A stretch of 64,000 bases of DNA. It comes from Pirellulales bacterium (GTDB taxonomy: Bacteria > Planctomycetota > Planctomycetia > Pirellulales > JALHPA01). Made by a program: the position numbers and the translations under genes. Below the pieces are notes generated by a model. The model worked only from the letters and a program-made list of their open reading frames with translations, did not search any database and had not been told where the DNA came from. Position 1 is the first letter of the stretch. Each line of letters opens with the position of its first letter. Shown here piece after piece: positions 7,174 through 55,761 of the stretch. Location of the stretch: contig JBGSSS010000210.1 in assembly GCA_041736895.1 (NCBI GenBank), positions 7,169-71,168 of the forward strand, in the 5' to 3' direction.

Positions 7174-7764
7174 ATGTTCACCGGTCTCGTCGAACATTGC
7201 TTGCCATTGACCGCGGTGATCGAAGAGCCGCCGGGGCGAAGGCTCGTGCTCGCCGTGCCGGCCTATCGCAGTGAGATTACGCTGGGCGAGAGCATCGCAA
7301 TTAACGGGTGCTGTCTGACCGTCGTCGAGATCGATGGGGACAAGCTCCATTTCCAAGCCGGACCCGAGACGCTCGCGCGGACGAACCTGGGCCAGCTTGC
7401 GACCGGCAGCCGGGTGAACATTGAGCGCTCGCTACGCTTTGGTGATCGGCTCGGCGGGCATTTGGTTACGGGGCACATCGATGGCGGCGGCACGGTCGCA
7501 AGGCGCGAGGATGTCGCCGATTGGTCGACGTTTTACTTCGCCGCGCCGCCGAACCTGCTCCGGCAAATGGCGAGCAAAGGCTCCATCGCCGTCGATGGCG
7601 TGAGCCTGACCTTGGTCGAGGTCACCGACCAACACTTCTCGGTCCAACTCATTCCGCACACACTCGCCGTGACGACACTCGGCGCGAAAAAGGTTGGCGA
7701 TGCGGTGAACCTGGAAACGGATCTGCTGGCCAAGTATGTCGAGCGGCAGTTGGTGTCCAAGTAG
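7174..7764 (+). CDS. ribE: riboflavin synthase alpha chain
   Basis: MFTGLVEH...INGCCLTVV...VNIERSL...GHLVTGHIDG...VDGVSLTLV is the duplicated lumazine-binding pattern. The ORF-track N-terminal extension (from 6742) is rejected. Confidence 0.9.
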   Translation: MFTGLVEHCLPLTAVIEEPPGRRLVLAVPAYRSEITLGESIAINGCCLTVVEIDGDKLHFQAGPETLARTNLGQLATGSRVNIERSLRFGDRLGGHLVTGHIDGGGTVARREDVADWSTFYFAAPPNLLRQMASKGSIAVDGVSLTLVEVTDQHFSVQLIPHTLAVTTLGAKKVGDAVNLETDLLAKYVERQLVSK

Positions 7765-7841
7765 TGTGGGCTTCAGCCCACACGTCAAAAAGCCATGGCA
7801 TAGCAATGAGCGCAAGTTTCAACGGCCACAACTGCCGCTGC

Positions 7842-12609: not shown

Positions 12610-14100
12610 TCAAGCGATCAATTCCTTGATCACCTTGGCATGTTCGACACCGGTGAGCTTGCCGTCAAGGCCCTGCGTTTTGAAGGTGAAGCGTTCGTGG
12701 TCGAGGCCCATGTTGTGGAGAACCGTCGCGTGGAAGTCGCGGATATGGACTGGGTCCTTGACGATGTTGTAGCTGAAGTCGTCCGTCTCGCCGTAGATCG
12801 TGCCACCCTTGAACCCGCCGCCGGCCATCCACATCGTGAAGCAACGGGGGTGATGGTCGCGGCCGTAGTTTTCCTTGCTGAGACCGCCTTGCGAGTAGAT
12901 CGTGCGGCCGAATTCACCGCCCCAGACGACGAGCGTGCTGTCGAGCAGGCCGCGTTGTTTGAGATCAGTGATCAAACCGTAAGTGGCTTGGTCAACGTCC
13001 ATGCACTGGCTCGGCAGCCGGACTTTCACGTTGGCGTGATTGTCCCAATTGTTGTGGTAAATCTGGACAAACCGCACGCCGCGTTCGACCAGCCGCCGCG
13101 CGAGCAACGCCGTGTTGGCAAAGTGCCCCGGCTTCTTGGCGTTTTCGCCATAGAGTTTGAACGTCTCTTCGGTTTCGGTGCCAAGGTTCGTCACTTCGGG
13201 CATGCTCCCTTGCATCTTGAACGCCATTTCGTACTGCTGGATGCGGGTGCGCGTCTCGGGATCGCCAAGTTCGGCGAGCGTCATCTCATTCAACTTGTTC
13301 AGTCCATCGAGTGTCTTGCGGCGGACTTCGCTGCTGACGCCCGGCGGATTATTGATGAACAAAATCGGATCGCCAGCGGTGCGGAACGACACGCCCGCAT
13401 GCTCGCCGGGGAGATACCCGCTCGACCAGATGCGGGCCGAGATCGCTTGAATCTGTTCGGTATTGGAGGGCTGCGCGACCATGACGACAAAGGTCGGCAG
13501 GTTGTCGTTGAGGGAACCGAGGCCGTAGCTGGTCCACGAGCCGAGACAGGGCTTGCCGGTGATTTGGTTGCCGGTCTGCATGTAGCTGACGGCCGGTTCG
13601 TGGTTGATCGCTTCGGTGTGCATCGAGCGGACGAAGCACATTTCGTCGGCGACCTTGGCGGTGTGGGGAAGGAGTTCGCTGATCCACATGCCCGACTTGC
13701 CGTGTTGGGCGAACTTGTACATCGACGGCGCGATGGGGAACCGCGCTTGGCCGCTGGTCATTGTCGTGAGCCGCTGGCCATTGCGAACCGATTCGGGCAA
13801 GTCCTTGTCGTACCAGTCGTTCATCTGGGGCTTGTAATCGAACAAGTCCAGCTGCGACGGCCCGCCGAGCATGTGCAGATAGATGACGTTTTTGATCTTG
13901 GCCGGGAAGTGCGTCGCGGGGAGCGCAGCGCGCTTGCCGATCGTCGCGGTCAGCGCAGGATCAATTTTATCGGATGTTTCTTTGCCAAACAGATGCGGCT
14001 GCATCAGCGCGGCCAATGCCGCGCCGCCAAGCAGGTGCGAACCTTGCGCAAAAAAGTGACGGCGAGTAAGGTTGAGGCCAAGTTGTTGGAGTGGGTTCAT
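12610..14100 (-). CDS. DUF1501 domain-containing protein (sulfatase-like fold, Tat signal)
   Basis: MNPLQQLGLNLTRRHFFAQGSHLLGGAALAAL Tat-like leader, then typical DUF1501 blocks (MLGGPSQLDLFDYKP; GGEFGRT; RDHHP). ATG at 14100. Confidence 0.9.
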   Translation of the reverse strand: MNPLQQLGLNLTRRHFFAQGSHLLGGAALAALMQPHLFGKETSDKIDPALTATIGKRAALPATHFPAKIKNVIYLHMLGGPSQLDLFDYKPQMNDWYDKDLPESVRNGQRLTTMTSGQARFPIAPSMYKFAQHGKSGMWISELLPHTAKVADEMCFVRSMHTEAINHEPAVSYMQTGNQITGKPCLGSWTSYGLGSLNDNLPTFVVMVAQPSNTEQIQAISARIWSSGYLPGEHAGVSFRTAGDPILFINNPPGVSSEVRRKTLDGLNKLNEMTLAELGDPETRTRIQQYEMAFKMQGSMPEVTNLGTETEETFKLYGENAKKPGHFANTALLARRLVERGVRFVQIYHNNWDNHANVKVRLPSQCMDVDQATYGLITDLKQRGLLDSTLVVWGGEFGRTIYSQGGLSKENYGRDHHPRCFTMWMAGGGFKGGTIYGETDDFSYNIVKDPVHIRDFHATVLHNMGLDHERFTFKTQGLDGKLTGVEHAKVIKELIA

Positions 14101-14108
14101 GATGGAAT

Positions 14109-14934
14109 GTAGCCTACTTGCCCCGCAAGTAGGCGAAACGGGGGAAGAGTTGATTTTACAAAACACGCGAGTAGTGAATTACTTGCCGATAATCAATCCC
14201 AGCTTCTTTCGGGTTTTCGATGATGTATCGACGTAAGCGAAAAAATTGCGCCTCGGTTCTGATCAAATGATCAAACGAATCTGGTTGCCAAAAACGTCCG
14301 TGCACATCAATTGCTTGATTGATCTGAAAGGCAGTCAAATGCTTCCAATTGCGGCAAATCTTCAGCAGCGAAACATCGTCAGGAAATGCTGCGATAAGAT
14401 GCACATGATTCGGCATAATGATGAAGTCATAGAGGATGTAATCTCGTTCATCGTCATGCTGCAATACATCCGCGACGATTTGAGCAATTCGCTTTTTGCG
14501 CAAGACGCATTCGCCATAAGCACGATCAAGCAATCGATTCCAACCTTGCGTCATTTTGCGTTTATATTCAGTTTGCAATGTTGGATTCAGTTGACTGACA
14601 TTGACCTGCAACTGTTTTCCCTGAACAACAATTCCCTTGTCTCGTAACCAAGCATTCCGTTTTTGCAGCCAACGATCCAGCACAGCCTGGGGAATCGAGT
14701 CCCAGGTGCGCCAGGTAATGAAACTCAGGGTCGCTGCTTGAGACCAGTGCGGCAATCTTCGCTGCACAACGGACTTTTCCGCAGCGTGATCATACGTGCG
14801 GAAAGGAATCGACAGTTTTGGAATGTCCGACATAAAGTCGTTGCTCTTTTGTGAAGACAAGCAAGGTTCGGAGTCTGAGAGTCTTTCTCGCCAACTTGCG
14901 GGGCAAGTTGGCTACATTCAGGCAAGTTGGCTAC
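14109..14934 (-). mobile_element. RAYT locus: transposase gene bracketed by inverted REP hairpins
   Basis: Left GTAGCCTACTTGCCCCGCAAGTAGGC (14109-14134). Right GCCAACTTGCGGGGCAAGTTGGCTAC (14890-14915) plus half copy GGCAAGTTGGCTAC (14921-14934). The arms are reverse complements apart from one compensatory base pair. Confidence 0.7.
14156..14833 (-). CDS. REP-associated tyrosine transposase (RAYT, IS200-like Y1/HUH family)
   Basis: HUH motif in IIMPNHVHLIAAF; RFWQPDSFDHLIR; catalytic-Tyr region LRRYIIENPKEAGI. ATG at 14833 (TTG at 14860 possible). Flanked by inverted GTAG-headed hairpins. Confidence 0.8.
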   Translation of the reverse strand: MSDIPKLSIPFRTYDHAAEKSVVQRRLPHWSQAATLSFITWRTWDSIPQAVLDRWLQKRNAWLRDKGIVVQGKQLQVNVSQLNPTLQTEYKRKMTQGWNRLLDRAYGECVLRKKRIAQIVADVLQHDDERDYILYDFIIMPNHVHLIAAFPDDVSLLKICRNWKHLTAFQINQAIDVHGRFWQPDSFDHLIRTEAQFFRLRRYIIENPKEAGIDYRQVIHYSRVL

Positions 14935-14944
14935 TCTTAGGCCG

Positions 14945-17900
14945 CTACTTGTTCAATACCTCGTCCAAATTCAGCAATTCATTGACCAGCATTGTCCATG
15001 CCGCGAGTTCTTCGGCCGCCAGCTTTTCATCTGGCTTCGAGTCGCCGACCGTGATGACTTGTTTCGCTTCGTCGGGCTTCCCTTTGTACGCCGCGCGGAG
15101 GTCCGCGAGCGACGCGGTGACGACTTCTTGTTCTGCCGGTTTCAATGAACGGGCGAGCAAGCGCCGCGCGATTTGATCGACCTTGGCCAAGTCATCCGGC
15201 GCGCCTGTCAGCAACACCGTTTGGGCCAAGTGCCGCGCGGATTCGACGAATTGCGGATCGTTAAGCGTTACGAGCGCTTGCAGCGGCGTATTCGTGCGAT
15301 CGCGGCGCACCGTGCAGAGCTCACGGTTCGTCGCGTTGAAGATTTCGAGCGATGCCGGCGGCGCGGCGCGTTTGACAAAGGTGTACATGCTTCGGCGATA
15401 GAGGTTCTCGCCCGTGTCTTGCTTGTAGCTGCGCGTGTCGCTGCCGGGCATCGCCACGGCTTCCCAAACTCCCGGCGGTTGATAGGGGCGAACGCTCGGG
15501 CCGCCGATTTTCGGCACCAAGATTCCGCTCGCGGCGAGCGCGTAATCGCGCACCATCTCGGCATCCATCCGGAACCGCGGGCCGCGCGAGAGCAAACGAT
15601 TCGCCGGATCCTTGAGCAACTTTTCCGGCGTCGCGACAGCCGCTTGGCGATACGTCGCCGACATGACGAGCTGTTTATAGAACTGTTTCATGTCCCAGTT
15701 CTTTTCGCGGAATTCGACTGCTAGATAATCGAGCAACTCGGGATGCGATGGCAACTCGCCGGCGATGCCGAAGTCGCCTGCCGTTTTCACAATCCCGGTG
15801 CCGAAGAGCTCTTGCCACATCCGGTTCACCGCGACACGTGCGGTTAGGGGATGCTCGGGCAACAGCAGCCACTGCGCGAGACCCAGGCGGTTCTTGGGAA
15901 GATCATCGGGGTACTTCGGCAGCGCGGCGGGAACTTGCGGCACGACTTCGTCCTTGCGCTGATCGTATTCGCCGCGATTGAGGACATAAGCTTTCGGCAT
16001 GCTCGGTTTTTCATTCATGACGTGGGCGATCGTGCCGCGCGATTTGATGGCGACTTCTTCTTGCCGCAGTTTTTCGAGCGCCGCGTTTTCTTGCTTGTAT
16101 GGTTCATCGAAATTGCTCAGCCAATAATCGCGCAGTTCATTGGTATCTTTGGCATCGCGTTTGTCGGCCGGTTTGGCAAAGATTTCGCGGAGCTTGGTGT
16201 TTTTGCTCAGGCCAGCAATTTCGGTCCCGGCCAGTTGCTTGGCGAAGATACGGACATCCTGGATTTGCAAGCCTGCGACACGGCTCGTGCTGCTGCGCTG
16301 GCCGAGTTTCCAGGGCACATCGGTTGCGAGTTCGCCGCTGAGTTTATCCGCTTCGACGTCGAACGGTTCGAGTACACCATTGATGTAAATCTTGATACCG
16401 CTGCTTTTCTTCGAGCCGTCATACGTCACAAAAACGTGGTACCACTGCTTCGGTTTGAGCTTCTGCTTGCCGACGACCTTGAGCGCGTTGTCGGGCCAGG
16501 CTGAAACGAGATGGGTTCCGATCCGGTCGTCTTGCAGCCAAAGGTCCCAGCCGCGAAAGTCTTTCTGATCATCCATCCGCGCAAACACGGCGCCCGTGAA
16601 GCCGCGCTTGGGAATTTGAATCCAGGCTCCGAAACTAAAAGCGTCCGCGGCTTTGAAGTTGCCGACTTGCGGCAGTTCCAGCGTGTTTTTCTGAGCCTCG
16701 ACCGCGAGCGCTTTATCAGTGAGCGTTTTGGGGTTTTTGCTCACGACCCATTTGTAGCCGTTGTTGAACTTGAGCTTGGTAGGCTCGTCGTTGACGGCAC
16801 AAGTCACATCATTTCCCTTGCCTTCGTCGAGCTTGAGCTGCAATTGCAGTTGGTCACGCGCTTCAGCGCCGAAAATCTTGTCAGCCGAGGCGCCCGCGAG
16901 CCAAATTTGGAACTCTGGTTCCGCGGCTTTTTTTCGGGCTTCGAGCTTGGCATTGGCCGCGTCCATCGCGACGAGCAATTTCTCGTAGCGCGGCTGATCG
17001 CTGAGTGACGGAACTTGGATGATCGGCGGCGTGTTGCGGACGTTGCCATCTTTGGCGGCTTGCGTCGTGTTGTTGAAGAACGCCGCGAGTTGATAGAACT
17101 CCTTTTGCGAGACGGGGTCGAACTTGTGATCGTGGCAGACAGCGCATTGCGTGGTTAACCCGAGCCAAATCTGCGACGTCGTTTCCGTCCGATCACGCGT
17201 GTAAAGGACCAGGTACTCTTCGTCGATGATCCCGCCTTCGTTGGTGGTGATGTTGCAGCGGTTGAACCCACTGCCGATCTTTTGCTCGAGCGTTGAATTG
17301 GGCAGCAGATCGCCCGCCAGGTTTTCGAGCGTGAACTGGTCATAGGTCATGTTGCGATTGAACGCCCCGATCAGCCAATCGCGGTACGACCACATCTCGC
17401 GATAGTTGTCAAAGTGAATGCCGTGGGTGTCGCCATAGCGCGCGTAGTCGAGCCAGTATCGTGCACGGTGTTCGCCCCATTGCGGGGTGGCCATCAATTT
17501 GTCAACGTAACGCTCGTAATAATCTGGCCGTGTGTCGGCGACAAACGCTTCAACCGCCTCGGGTGTTGGCGGCAAACCAGTTAGGTCGAGACTCAAACGC
17601 CGCGCGAGTGTCCGGCGATCGGCTTCGGCGGCCGGGGCGAGGCCCGCCTCTTCGAGCTCGGCAAGGATGAACTGATCGATGGGGTTGCGGACCCAGGCTT
17701 TGTTCTTCACCGCCGGCAGTTCGCCGCGCTTCGGGGCGATGAACGACCAGTGCGGCTGATACTCGGCCCCTTCGCTGATCCAGCGCTTGAGCAGCTCGCG
17801 CTCCTCGGGCTTCAGCTTCTTATGCGAAGCCGGCGGCGGCATGATCATCTCGGGATCGGTGCTGGTGATCCGCTCCCAGGCGGAGCTTTTCTCGAGCTTG

Positions 17901-29067: not shown

Positions 29068-29529
29068 ATGTCCCCCGAAACACAACTCACCGCTCTTGGC
29101 ATTACCCTCGCGATCCCCGGCAAGCCGGCCGGCGTTTACAAACCGGTTGTGCAGGTCGGCAACCTGCTGTACCTCAGCGGGCACGGGCCGATTCAGACCG
29201 ACGGCAAGGGACTCTGCGGCAAAGTTGGGGCGGACCTGACGCTGGAGCAAGGCAAAGAAGCCGCGCGGCTGACGGGCCTATCGCTGCTCGCGACGCTGCG
29301 AGCGTACCTCGGCTCGCTCGATCGCGTCGTGCGGATCGTCAAAACGCTCGGCCTGGTGAACAGCGCGCCGGACTTCACGCAACACCCTGGTGTGATCAAC
29401 GGCTGCAGCGAATTGCTTCGCGATGTCTTCGGCGAAGACGCAGGGATCGGCGCACGGAGTGCGTTCGGCGCTGCAGCGCTGCCAGCCGGTTGGGCGACGG
29501 AGATTGAGTTGATTGTGGAAGTCGCGTAG
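29068..29529 (+). CDS. RidA/YjgF family protein
   Basis: VGNLLYLSGHGP...GKVGADLTLEQGKEAARL...ARSAFGAAALPAGWATEIELIVEV. ATG at 29068 after a heptamer array. Confidence 0.85.
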   Translation: MSPETQLTALGITLAIPGKPAGVYKPVVQVGNLLYLSGHGPIQTDGKGLCGKVGADLTLEQGKEAARLTGLSLLATLRAYLGSLDRVVRIVKTLGLVNSAPDFTQHPGVINGCSELLRDVFGEDAGIGARSAFGAAALPAGWATEIELIVEVA

Positions 29530-29550
29530 CTCGTAGCCATTGCTACGAGC
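29526..29550 (+). repeat. GTAG-headed REP-like hairpin
   Basis: GTAGCTCGTAGCCATTGCTACGAGC. The TAG at 29527-29529 is the stop codon of the RidA-family gene. Confidence 0.6.
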
Positions 29551-31393: not shown

Positions 31394-31417
31394 GCTCGAA
31401 GCACGGCTTCGAGCTAC
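31394..31417 (-). repeat. GTAG-headed REP-like hairpin
   Basis: GCTCGAAGCACGGCTTCGAGCTAC (minus strand reads GTAGCTCGAAGC...). Contains the TAG stop of the PQQ-propeller gene (31414-31416). Confidence 0.6.
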
Positions 31418-32828: not shown

Positions 32829-32905
32829 GTAGCCAAGGTCGTGAGACCTTGGATATGCAGACTAGGTCCAGAGGTTATCATCTGAAGTCTCACGACTTCA
32901 GCTAC
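32829..32905. repeat. REPIN-like inverted doublet of GTAG-headed hairpins
   Basis: GTAGCCAAGGTCGTGAGACCTTGG (32829-32852) and CTGAAGTCTCACGACTTCAGCTAC (32882-32905), heads pointing outward. Confidence 0.6.
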
Positions 32906-33586: not shown

Positions 33587-34468
33587 ATGTCCAACGACAT
33601 CGCCGCTACTCCCCAACGTCCCAGTAAATGGAAGCGCTGGCTGCGGGGGCTGCTCTGCATCTACCTGGTCTACATGGGACTGATGTACTTCTTTCAGCGG
33701 TCGCTCATTTTCCCGGGGCAGTATCGCGCTGCCGAGCCGCCACTGCGCTTAAGCGATGGAATGGAGCAGCTCTGGATCGAAAACGACGGAGCCAAGGTCG
33801 AAGTCTTGCTCCTCGCGCCGCTGAAGACAGAGGATCAAGCCACAAGTGCCGGCGTGAAACCAGCTCCGGCGAAACATCCGGCCATCATCTACACGCACGG
33901 CAACGGCGAGCAGATCGATGATTGGCTGACTGAACTGCGGCCGTATCGCGAGTGGGGCTGTTATGTGGTCCTCGTTGAATACCCCGGTTATGGCCGATCA
34001 ACAGGCAAGCCTAGCGAAGCGGCGATTGCCGACATCGTGACGCGCGTTTATGACGAATTGCTCAAGCGGCCGGACATCGACTCGACCCGGATCGTCGCGC
34101 ATGGGCGATCGCTAGGCGGCGGCGCGGCGTGTTTGCTCGCCGCGCGGCGGCCCGTTGCCGCGCTCGTTCTCGAATCGACATTCACGAGCGTTCGCTCGAT
34201 GGCGGGGCGCTATGGGTTGCCCGGGTACTTTTGCAGTGACCCGTTCGACAATTTGCAGGTCGTCAACGAGTGGCAGAAACCGTTGCTGATCTTTCACGGG
34301 ACGAAGGACCGGGTTATCCCGTTTTCGCATGGCGAAGCGCTGGCCAAGGCGAATCCCAAGGCCGAGTTCATTCCTTGGAAAGACGCCGACCACAACGATT
34401 TCCCGCCGGCGATTAGTCGCAGTTGGCCCGCGGTGCGGGTGTTCTTGGAGAAGGCGGGAGTCTTGTAG
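33587..34468 (+). CDS. alpha/beta hydrolase
   Basis: N-terminal TM; IIYTHGNGEQIDDW; nucleophile elbow GRSLGGG; C-terminal DHNDF. Confidence 0.8.
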   Translation: MSNDIAATPQRPSKWKRWLRGLLCIYLVYMGLMYFFQRSLIFPGQYRAAEPPLRLSDGMEQLWIENDGAKVEVLLLAPLKTEDQATSAGVKPAPAKHPAIIYTHGNGEQIDDWLTELRPYREWGCYVVLVEYPGYGRSTGKPSEAAIADIVTRVYDELLKRPDIDSTRIVAHGRSLGGGAACLLAARRPVAALVLESTFTSVRSMAGRYGLPGYFCSDPFDNLQVVNEWQKPLLIFHGTKDRVIPFSHGEALAKANPKAEFIPWKDADHNDFPPAISRSWPAVRVFLEKAGVL

Positions 34469-34488
34469 CTCGAAGCCATGCTTCGAGC
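34465..34488 (+). repeat. GTAG-headed REP-like hairpin
   Basis: GTAGCTCGAAGCCATGCTTCGAGC. The TAG at 34466-34468 is the stop codon of the alpha/beta hydrolase gene. Confidence 0.6.
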
Positions 34489-34532: not shown

Positions 34533-34711
34533 GTAGCCAACTTGATCTGCAAGTTGGAACTCGCTGAGTGCCATTTCAAGTTCATGCACTATTTGCGAGC
34601 GGCGCATCTTTCCTTCTCGCGGGGCGAGAGGTCCACTTTGAATAGCTAACACTCGATTCAATGCGTCTTGGCCGCGCAGCGGTCTTCCAACTTGCAGAGC
34701 AAGTTGGCTAC
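34533..34711. repeat. REPIN-like inverted pair of the RAYT-flank REP type
   Basis: GTAGCCAACTTGATCTGCAAGTTGG (34533-34557) and CCAACTTGCAGAGCAAGTTGGCTAC (34687-34711). Same stem as the REP at 14890-14915. Confidence 0.65.
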
Positions 34712-34718
34712 TCTTTTC

Positions 34719-34742
34719 GCTCGAAGCATGGCTTCGAGCTAC
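34719..34742 (-). repeat. GTAG-headed REP-like hairpin
   Basis: GCTCGAAGCATGGCTTCGAGCTAC. Contains the TAG stop (34739-34741) of the enoyl-CoA hydratase gene. Near-identical to 31394-31417, including the preceding CTCTTTTC. Confidence 0.6.
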
Positions 34743-35518
34743 GGCCAAACCGGCGGTCGTTTTTCGATAAAGGCCCGCAGCCCCTCGGCTGCGCTTTCGG
34801 TCGTGCGTGCCGCGGCGCTCACCGCTGCGCCAGCGGACAATTGCATCGACAGTTCTTCGCCGATCATTTCATTCAGCATTCGCTTGCTCATCAAGAGCGC
34901 CTCGGGCGCGTTGAGCGCGATCTCTTCGGCAATCAGCGTGGCCCGCGCCCAGAGCAGATCGTTGCTGACCAGCTCGTGAACCAATCCGATGCGAAACGCT
35001 TGATCGCCATCAATCACTCGGCCAGTTAGCAACAGCGGTGCGGCTTGGCCGGCGCCGATTCGAAACGCCAAGAGCGGACTGACGATCCCCGCGACAACGC
35101 CGCGGCGCGGCTCGGGCAAGCCGAACTGTGACTCGCTCGACGCGATCACGATGTCGCAGGCCAACATGAGCCCCAGCCCGCCAGCCACGGCGGGGCCGTT
35201 GACCGCGGCGATCAGTGGTTTGGGAAACCGGAGCATCATTTCGAGCAAATCGCGGTAGATTTCAGCATCTTCTTGGAGACGTTCCTGGGCATCTTCGCCC
35301 GTGCCGGCGGCTTGCATCTCGGCCAGGTCCATGCCGGCGCAGAACGCGCTGCCAGCGCCGGTGATGACCACGGCGCGGACCGGCTTCTCGCGATGAAGCG
35401 TGCGCAGGGCACCTTCGAAATCGGCGAGCAACTCGCGGCTCAGCGCGTTGCGCTTCTCGGGCCGATTCAGGACAATCGTGCCGGCGTGCTGGTGCGCCAT
35501 GATTTTGACAAGGGACAT
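34739..35518 (-). CDS. enoyl-CoA hydratase/isomerase family protein
   Basis: IVLNRPEKRNALS...VVITGAGSAFCAGMDL...AAVNGPAVAGGLGLMLACD crotonase motifs. Confidence 0.9.
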   Translation of the reverse strand: MSLVKIMAHQHAGTIVLNRPEKRNALSRELLADFEGALRTLHREKPVRAVVITGAGSAFCAGMDLAEMQAAGTGEDAQERLQEDAEIYRDLLEMMLRFPKPLIAAVNGPAVAGGLGLMLACDIVIASSESQFGLPEPRRGVVAGIVSPLLAFRIGAGQAAPLLLTGRVIDGDQAFRIGLVHELVSNDLLWARATLIAEEIALNAPEALLMSKRMLNEMIGEELSMQLSAGAAVSAAARTTESAAEGLRAFIEKRPPVWP

Positions 35519-45112: not shown

Positions 45113-45217
45113 GTAGGTCCCGCGGTCCTCCGCGGGACCTGGTGCGGGGGGACGCGTGACGTGTCCTCTCGCGGCGTCCAACGCCGCACCGGGTCCCGGT
45201 CTCCGACCGGGACCTAC
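45113..45217. repeat. REPIN-like inverted doublet (GTAGG head)
   Basis: GTAGGTCCCGCGGTCCTCCGCGGGACC (45113-45139) and GGTCCCGGTCTCCGACCGGGACCTAC (45192-45217). Confidence 0.55.
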
Positions 45218-55659: not shown

Positions 55660-55761
55660 AGCTCCGAAGGAGCGGCATTGTGTAGCCAGGGGTGTAAGCC
55701 CCTGGTTGACTTCACCAGGGGCTTGCACCCCTGGCTACATTCCTTCGCTCCTTCGGAGCTT
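55660..55761. repeat. nested ~100-nt palindrome containing a GTAGCC-headed doublet
   Basis: AGCTCCGAAGGAGCG...GTAGCCAGGGGTGTAAGCCCCTGG...CCAGGGGCTTGCACCCCTGGCTAC...CGCTCCTTCGGAGCT. Confidence 0.6.

Follow-up and report, generated by a model that had tools for sequence, protein, structure and literature searches.

A small transposase gene and the DNA hairpins around it were analysed in a stretch of 64,000 nucleotides from a Pirellulales bacterium (GenBank assembly GCA_041736895.1, contig JBGSSS010000210.1), which is called the window throughout. The gene encodes a REP-associated tyrosine transposase (RAYT, or TnpAREP), and it is bracketed by two inverted copies of a repetitive extragenic palindrome (REP) with a 5' GTAG tag, an arrangement that is interpreted below as a REPtron. 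Three relatives, L001 (an ENA contig), L033 (a metagenome-assembled genome (MAG) from NCBI) and L038 (a Logan contig), were used for comparison. The features of the locus are as follows.

14156 to 14833, minus strand: RAYT gene (TnpAREP-type Y1 HUH transposase), 225 aa, with its ATG at 14833
14109 to 14134, plus strand: REP on the DUF1501 side (T·A variant), GTAGCCTACTTGCCCCGCAAGTAGGC, consisting of GTAG tag, 10-bp stem and 3-nt loop
14890 to 14915, minus strand: REP on the DUF1553 side (A·T variant), GTAGCCAACTTGCCCCGCAAGTTGGC, inverted relative to the other flank
14921 to 14934, minus strand: half REP copy of 14 nt, GTAGCCAACTTGCC, with the tag and the 5' stem arm only
14945 to 14948, minus strand: GTAG including the TAG stop of the DUF1553 gene, at the head of a tandem series of three GTAGC motifs that runs towards the REP
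12610 to 14100, minus strand: DUF1501 gene (509 bits), downstream of the REPtron and syntenic in L001, L033 and L038
14945 to 18148, minus strand: PSCyt1/PSCyt2(DUF1549)/PSD1(DUF1553) gene, upstream of the REPtron and syntenic in the same three relatives

The DUF1553, RAYT and DUF1501 genes are all co-directional, and the REPtron takes up the entire intergenic gap of 844 nt.

The RAYT protein

The open reading frame at 14156-14833 carries the motifs by which the gene had been recognized in a preliminary description of this DNA, and both the coordinates and the sequences given there are correct. The HUH motif (H143-V-H145) lies in IIMPNHVHLI, and LRRYIIENP, within the Tyr region LRRYIIENPKEAGI, carries the catalytic Y203. 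The ATG start is the one used by the L001 orthologue. Across 60 homologues, H143, H145, Y203, P208, W182, D188, H189 and R192 are invariant, and N207 is conserved in at least 90%, so that the Tyr motif YIIENP (residues 203-208) has the class-2 form Y-x3-NP. In a phmmer alignment to the E. coli TnpAREP structure 4ER8, residues W182, Q183, D188, H189 and R192 correspond to W94, Q95, E/D100, H101 and R104, which are listed as GTAG contacts in PMC6006769, the source also of the class signatures (Y-x3-NP versus Y-x3-Q in IS200). The RAYT equivalents of these contact residues are invariant or nearly so within the family.

The assignment to the RAYT type over IS200, which had been proposed from the motifs, was upheld by profile and structure searches together with the Y-x3-NP motif and the retained GTAG-contact residues. 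The Pfam Y1_Tnp model matched with 29.6 bits (cut-off 23), and the top NCBIfam model was REP_Tyr_transpos (NF047646) with 58.4 bits, whereas transpos_IS200 gave 22.3 bits against its own cut-off of 55. A sequence search of the PDB returned a single match, E. coli TnpAREP (4ER8). An AlphaFold (AF2) model built on the 60 homologues (pLDDT 87, pTM 0.79) was used for a fold search, in which 4ER8 was again best (E = 2.7e-5), followed by the TnpA proteins of ISDra2 and IS608. As modelled, the protein has the Y1 fold with its catalytic residues in place. The model also contains a conserved two-helix insertion of ~55 aa (about residues 49-103) between beta1 and alphaA.

Homologues of the RAYT are numerous; cluster representatives number 6,996 at an E-value threshold of 1e-3 and 103 at a threshold of 1e-30. 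Close homologues belong to Pirellulales/Pirellulaceae MAGs, and some of them bear the name "REP element-mobilizing transposase RayT". Within the 64-kb window, neither a second RAYT copy nor a tnpB gene was found. When the window was compared with L001, the ratio of nonsynonymous to synonymous divergence (dN/dS) was 0.16 for the RAYT and 0.07 for the neighbour genes; on this comparison, the RAYT appears to be a functional gene that evolves faster than its neighbours.

In the same comparison, the synonymous divergence (dS) at the 5' end of the RAYT gene (14714-14845, comprising the first ~40 codons and 12 nt upstream) was 0.25, against 0.96 and 2.48 elsewhere in the gene. This stretch takes in the upstream GAGCAACGACTT and a possible 8-bp stem, TTTCCGCA...TGCGGAAA, and it is not conserved in L033. 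The low dS could reflect a regulatory element or local recombination.

The same Y1 domain, including the insertion, was also seen in four larger proteins of 1,000-1,500 aa (P0299, P0358, P0287 and P0362), with 37-40% identity over ~200 aa. In these proteins it is fused to an Eco57I/MmeI-type N6-methyltransferase and TaqI_C specificity domains, and the JGI label 'type I restriction enzyme R subunit' on many stand-alone homologues probably derives from these fusions. An HUH nuclease domain within a type IIG/IIL-like restriction-modification enzyme may merit separate study.

Flanking REPs and their dispersed copies

Both flanking REPs are 26 nt long, with a 10-bp stem and a 3-nt loop, and the first stem base is the last G of GTAG. 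Their tags face outward from the gene. On the DUF1501 side, the hairpin ends 8 nt short of the DUF1501 start codon. The inverted arms around the gene extend over 32 nt at 94% complementarity, and the flanks differ only at one pair, T..A versus A..T. The inverted hairpins at both flanks and the half copy were thus exactly as first reported. Folded as single-stranded DNA (ssDNA), the two REPs have free energies (dG) of -10.9 and -11.5 kcal/mol, with z = -7.1 and -7.3 against shuffled sequences. The 26-mer REP pattern has three matches in the window and none in 100 shuffles, and GTAG-tagged hairpins with a stem of at least 8 bp occur 13 times in the window and not once in any of 20 dinucleotide shuffles. 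The possibility that the flank hairpins are intrinsic terminators was ruled out, since they lack a T-run and the terminator scan was empty at the REPs. No Rfam family covers the flank REPs. The AAGTAG gene end of DUF1553, in which the tandem GTAGC motifs begin, is also present in L038, which has no REPtron.

Beyond the flanks, two copies of the same REP family form an inverted doublet in the window.

34533 to 34557, plus strand: dispersed copy with loop ATCT, left arm of the doublet
34558 to 34686, no strand assigned: doublet spacer, within which a conserved hairpin motif, CTTCTCGCGGGGCGAGAGGTCCACTTT, lies at 34613-34639; the motif is found with this REP in L008 and L033 too
34687 to 34711, minus strand: dispersed copy with loop CTCT, the commonest loop among the metagenome copies, right arm of the doublet

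The GTAG tags of this doublet (34533-34711) face outward, with a spacer of 129 nt between the arms, and the doublet folded with its outer REP pair has a dG of -84.8 kcal/mol (z = -11.3). With two inverted REPs, a short spacer and the capacity for a long hairpin, it fits the description of a REP doublet forming hairpin (REPIN) or bacterial interspersed mosaic element (BIME).

Using a pattern in which the third stem pair and the loop were left free, we found the motif on 28 metagenome contigs, 26 of which hold family copies in unrelated flanks (14 of the 26 from one sample). Among the dispersed copies, AGA-GTAGCCAACTTGCTCTGCAAGTTGG-AAT is the most frequent form. Inverted doublets are found in a tight version, with a spacer of 4 nt (L016, L021, L026 and L028), and in a wider one, with spacers of ~60-480 nt, and doublets often pair two unlike variants, as the RAYT flanks do. 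The hairpins are therefore not private to the locus, since they recur both in the window and on the 26 metagenome contigs; their absence elsewhere would have spoken against the preliminary description. From these copies, the REP family appears to be dispersed as singles and inverted doublets in the manner of REPINs or BIMEs. By tblastn, the REP-bearing metagenome contigs contain no further RAYT and no DUF1501 or DUF1553 gene. In L007, L024 and L030 there are flank-type REPs whose loop is CCCC; the idea that they are orthologous remnants of the RAYT locus was rejected, as DUF1501 and DUF1553 are missing there. Genome contigs scanned with the REP pattern gave three single matches, all in unrelated MAGs. 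These, which may be either related REP families or chance matches, were a C·G variant in an unclassified MAG (L003/L029, 8923-8947), a G·T variant in a Verrucomicrobiales MAG (L004, 5702-5726) and one match in a Saccharibacteria MAG (L002).

The dispersed copies also allowed the pairing of the stem to be examined by covariation. The alignment held 48 REP copies, 37 of them distinct; L025 was left out as a probable chance match, having a T..C mismatch at the variable pair and another loop. In this alignment, 91% of cells are paired, and double changes are found at three stem pairs. At the third pair, A-T (23), T-A (6), G-C (4), C-G (3) and G-T (1) occur and no copy is unpaired; the seventh pair changes from T-A to C-G in 5 copies, and the first from C-G to G-C once. 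The covariation score was matched by none of 500 shuffles, and slid registers fall to 20-40% pairing. Because compensatory changes occur at three stem pairs across the family, the T·A/A·T swap between the two RAYT flanks is one case of a general pattern. The earlier proposal that the hairpin itself is what is preserved therefore holds well beyond the two flanks, and the flanks can be regarded, on this alignment, as GTAG-tagged hairpins selected for pairing.

A structured, conserved spacer of ~125 nt accompanies REPs of this family in several places (L033:3081-3210, L033:3934-4055, window 34558-34686 and L008:140-330). In L033 and L008, it opens with a further tagged hairpin, GTGGCCTGCTCAC.CCGTGAGCAGG. 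It holds the hairpin CTTCTCGCGGRGCGAGAAG and then GCCACTTT, the latter being complementary to the 5' AAAGTGGC of the element. In L033, the RAYT gene lies between two direct copies of the spacer, and there is no REP towards DUF1553. The REP with its structured spacer looks like a BIME-like composite element.

Conservation of the locus among relatives

The gene order DUF1553-RAYT-DUF1501 is kept in L001, where the RAYT is 74% identical, and in L033, where it is 56% identical, and this drop is in step with the divergence of the neighbour genes. Between the window and L001, dS is 0.65-0.84 for the neighbours and 1.07 for the RAYT. Over the same distance, the two REP blocks are identical at 46 of 48 and 29 of 29 positions, and the adjacent non-coding spacer at 16 of 29 with a 13-nt indel. 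The REPs of L001 are identical to those of the window and are arranged in the same way: the T·A variant adjoins DUF1501, the A·T variant adjoins DUF1553, and the half copy is present as well. In L033, an identical T·A REP lies on the DUF1501 side.

In L038, DUF1553 and DUF1501 are direct neighbours, separated by an unrelated spacer of 52 nt in which there is no REP, which agrees with the earlier view that the RAYT locus splits this gene pair. Over the whole block, the window and L001 have a nucleotide identity of 84.2%, and the identities to L038 are 81.5% and 81.7%; the DUF1553 identity is 84.6% between the window and L038 and 80.8% between the window and L033. The phylogeny of DUF1501 alone is star-like and uninformative, so the argument on gain versus loss rests on DUF1553 and the block-wide nucleotide identity. 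These values favour the tree (L033,(L038,(window,L001))), the rooting of which depends on few genes. Under this tree, the ancestor had the REPtron and L038 lost it, and the empty site in L038 is most likely a loss. As far as these sequences can tell, the RAYT and its flanks have held one chromosomal site through substantial divergence.

These comparisons bear on whether the locus could instead be an ordinary autonomous insertion sequence (IS) of the IS200/IS605 type, with the hairpins as its left and right ends, that inserted recently between the two genes. The locus has the same catalytic fold as IS608 and ISDra2, and ssDNA hairpin substrates with a 5' tetranucleotide would be common to both. 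A recent IS would also explain the Pfam Y1_Tnp match, the compact unit with a hairpin at each end and the empty site in a relative. However, the same site is occupied in three lineages despite the diverged RAYTs (74% and 56%), and on the likely tree the empty site arose by loss. Both ends consist of the same dispersed repeat, placed symmetrically in inverted orientation, with no distinct left and right structures, REP copies are present without the gene, the Tyr motif is Y-x3-NP and not the Y-x3-Q of IS200 (PMC6006769), tnpB is lacking, and the IS200 models are outscored by the RAYT models. Because of the fixed site, the absence of tnpB, the symmetric flanks and the Y-x3-NP motif, we consider an autonomous IS very unlikely.

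GTAG hairpins flank all five homologous RAYTs that were examined (L001, L033, L034, L036 and L037). The RAYTs of L034, L036 and L037 are 45-49% identical to that of the window, and their flanking GTAG hairpins have other stems (GTAGRCCTCACGC..., GTAGYCATCACGC...), some of them in doublets. Such lineage-specific stems suggest the enzyme-repeat co-variation that is expected of RAYT/REP systems. This is difficult to reconcile with mere coincidence, in which the hairpins would be intergenic palindromes or terminators of a general kind that have nothing to do with the protein. Several other GTAG-hairpin families in the window do lack an adjoining RAYT, as coincidence would have it. Against it stand the five out of five flanked homologues with their lineage-specific stems, the inverted 32-nt arms that bracket the gene exactly, the retention of both flanks in L001 and of the DUF1501-side flank in L033, and the lack of any match in the shuffles, and we regard coincidence as extremely improbable.

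In a more distant DUF1553-DUF1501 pair (L039:2910-3569 / L040), a DUF4058 gene of 219 aa occupies the intergenic position of the RAYT. The DUF1501 of this distant pair is 80% identical and its DUF1553 62% identical, and the downstream genes differ. Small selfish genes may insert repeatedly at the DUF1553-DUF1501 junction.

Interpretation and proposed mechanism

With the evidence above, the locus is in all likelihood a REPtron, that is, a domesticated, chromosomally fixed and vertically inherited RAYT (class-2 TnpAREP, an HUH/Y1 ssDNA endonuclease-ligase) with two inverted cognate REPs. By analogy with the systems of E. coli, Stenotrophomonas and Marinomonas (PMC3479197, PMC8266576), the RAYT would bind to single-stranded DNA in which the REP is folded, and it would do so on just one of the two strands. 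The 5' GTAG would be read by residues around W182, Q183, D188, H189 and R192, the metal would be held by H143 and H145, and Tyr203 would cut and rejoin the DNA beside the hairpin. As a presumed outcome, REPs or their doublets would now and then be excised or copied into other intergenic positions, and the gene would stay in place. The two flanks, one T·A and the other A·T, may simply represent two REP variants frozen by stem-preserving selection, for which no side-specific signal is required.

Several observations weigh against this interpretation. First, the REP_Tyr_transpos score of 58.4 bits is below the equivalog cut-off of 80, so the RAYT represents a divergent subfamily and is no close orthologue of the curated set. 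Second, the orientation of the tag relative to the gene is not constant among the homologues, being outward in the window and inward in L036. Third, the 64-kb window contains just two REP copies beyond the flanks, and the REP-bearing metagenome contigs, which are without a RAYT, are not attributable to the source organism. Finally, the flank REPs, with a CCC loop and a 10-bp stem, are unlike the commonest dispersed type, with a TCT loop and a 9-bp stem. Because the two types differ in loop and stem, we can only infer that the dispersed copies are mobilized by the RAYT of the window at present.

The conservation of the REPs could also be explained from the side of the host. The RAYT may have been fully domesticated for a host function or merely retained, mobilizing nothing, and the REPs may persist as host RNA or DNA elements. 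They might, for example, stabilize or attenuate the transcript between DUF1553, RAYT and DUF1501, or control how DUF1501 is translated; the hairpin is 8 nt away from the start codon of that gene. This possibility is favoured by the perfect conservation of the REPs within what is a 52-nt operon junction in L038, by the co-directional order of the three genes, and by the many GTAG hairpins in the window that lie exactly at gene ends and give the TAG stop. The first 40 RAYT codons, with a dS of 0.25 versus ~1-2.5 elsewhere, also hint at an overlapping constraint. However, the catalytic and GTAG-contact residues are invariant and dN/dS is 0.16, which argues that the nuclease itself is under selection; the existence of dispersed copies and of doublets, with their variant stems, indicates that the REP has spread in the past; and the hairpins, having no T-run, are not intrinsic terminators. 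As a replacement for the REPtron reading, this explanation is improbable. A host-serving role of the REPs is compatible with a REPtron, and the two are not mutually exclusive.

We also considered a bolder possibility, in which the protein belongs to an unclassified RAYT subclass that dominates in Pirellulales and is defined by the two-helix insertion between beta1 and alphaA, with the same domain also used in the Eco57I/MmeI-type fusions. The flank REP pair would then be invariant at the operon junction for a job beyond that of transposase substrate, perhaps by serving as a master copy or by regulating the expression of RAYT and DUF1501, and its two sides would not be interchangeable. This remains doubtful, and we offer it only as a tentative suggestion.

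Relation to known REP systems

The named systems for comparison are the REPtrons of Proteobacteria, namely E. coli TnpAREP (4ER8, PMC3479197) and the RAYT-REPIN systems of Stenotrophomonas, Marinomonas and Pseudomonas (PMC8266576, PMC3116915, PMC2817692). The locus shares with them an HUH/Y1 enzyme with Y-x3-NP and equivalents of the GTAG-contact residues, inverted 5'-GTAG REPs around the gene, a short perfect palindrome (as in the 'group 3' REPs), the occurrence of REPs as singles and inverted doublets, vertical inheritance, and a single gene copy (here within the 64-kb window). Single-copy RAYTs and their vertical inheritance are established in Proteobacteria (PMC5581495; bioRxiv 10.1101/2021.07.10.451892). 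In contrast to those systems, the present one has a planctomycete host, a protein of 225 aa, another REP stem and a site within a two-gene operon junction. It also differs from E. coli TnpAREP by the ~55-aa two-helix insertion, and from the curated NCBIfam REP_Tyr_transpos set by its score under the equivalog cut-off.

Within class 2 of TnpAY1 as divided by Quentin et al. 2018 (PMC6006769), subclass 2.7 is described by [ND]HVH / WQ / YI..NP (YI[LR][NQ]NP), a median length of 213 aa and GT[AG]G REPs. At the level of this motif description, the RAYT of the window is like subclass 2.7, with NHVH / WQ / YIIENP, a similar length and GTAG REP flanks. The position of E100 is D, as in subclasses 2.5 and 2.7; subclass 2.4 was also included in the comparison. 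No planctomycete names were found in the supplements of that study. The RAYT lies outside class 3, which is rich in planctomycetes and has Y-x4-Q and a CnGA foot.

GTAG REPs in planctomycetes are not new, and in this respect the preliminary description had overrated the novelty of the locus: GTAG REPs, flanked RAYT genes and several REP families in Rhodopirellula baltica have been known since 2013. The study of Di Nocera et al. 2013 (PMC3733652) reports GTAG REPs in Planctomycetes and Verrucomicrobia, several REP families together with "a plethora" of genes for tyrosine transposases, flanked by repeats, in R. baltica, and TAG stop codons that are often supplied by GTAG. The window resembles the GTAG REPs of R. 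baltica and the wider Planctomycetes-Verrucomicrobia-Chlamydiae group in phylum and probably order, in coexisting GTAG families, in flanked Y1 genes and in GTAG-derived TAG stops; the likeness is one of description, and the REP family of the window has the form GCCWACTTGC... in its sequence. The present locus adds evidence from synteny, an empty site and covariation.

The locus is thus a further example of an already described RAYT/REP kind, of which planctomycete cases are already known, and it leaves the current picture of RAYTs and REPs unchanged. Its added value lies in the quality of the comparative evidence. To the best of our knowledge, RAYT-REPIN systems have been studied almost only in Proteobacteria. 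The locus is a well-anchored planctomycete example, with an occupied and an empty orthologous site and three diverged RAYT orthologues, and it also offers REP flanks that stayed identical while neutral sites neared saturation, as well as natural compensatory variants at three stem pairs. It can be a convenient comparative system for studying what keeps flanking REPs constant and how the hairpin sequence co-evolves with the enzyme.

Other GTAG hairpins in the window

At least four other families of GTAG-tagged hairpins are present in the window, for example GTAGCTCGAAGCCATGCTTCGAGC, and most of them form inverted pairs with the tags outward. Their positions are as follows.

34465 to 34488 (plus strand) and 34719 to 34742 (minus strand): inverted pair of GTAG hairpins
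29526 to 29550, plus strand: GTAG hairpin
31394 to 31417, minus strand: GTAG hairpin
32829 to 32852 (plus strand) and 32882 to 32905 (minus strand): inverted pair of GTAG hairpins
45113 to 45140 (plus strand) and 45192 to 45217 (minus strand): inverted pair of GTAG hairpins
7761 to 7783, plus strand: GTAG hairpin

The CCAACTTG-type doublet is enclosed by the pair 34465/34742, and the 288-nt unit as a whole has a folding z of -11.3. The window contains no second RAYT that could account for these other families.

At seven of the 15 GTAG hairpins in the window, a long open frame of 145-432 codons stops exactly on the TAG of GTAG. The hairpins that supply the stop are those at 7761, 29526, 31417, 32905, 34465, 34742 and 45113, and the DUF1553 stop at 14945-14948 is a further case. 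For example, the convergent genes 33587-34468 and 34739-35518 both terminate within the outer REP pair around the doublet. Among the metagenome copies of the CCAACTTG REP type, such TAG-stop donation was found in 9 of 39, versus 3 and 5 in the control frames, which is a weak signal; a preference of this REP type for donating stops was rejected accordingly, the effect in the window coming mostly from the other GTAG families. The REP at 14109 was also dismissed as a stop-donating case, as the frame concerned is just an antisense shadow of DUF1501.

A perfectly palindromic doublet of ~101 nt at 55660-55760, whose cores are the GTAG hairpins GTAGCCAGGGGTGYAAGCCCCTGG, is matched in both arms by the Rfam family RF01687, 'Acido-Lenti-1 RNA', a candidate small RNA (Weinberg 2010). 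The matches are at 55660-55705 (minus strand, 46.3 bits) and 55715-55760 (plus strand, 39.3 bits), with a gathering score of 37. The consensus of RF01687 reads as the complement of a GTAG-tagged REP with a second small hairpin, and because of this resemblance the family may be a DNA repeat of the REP/REPIN type.

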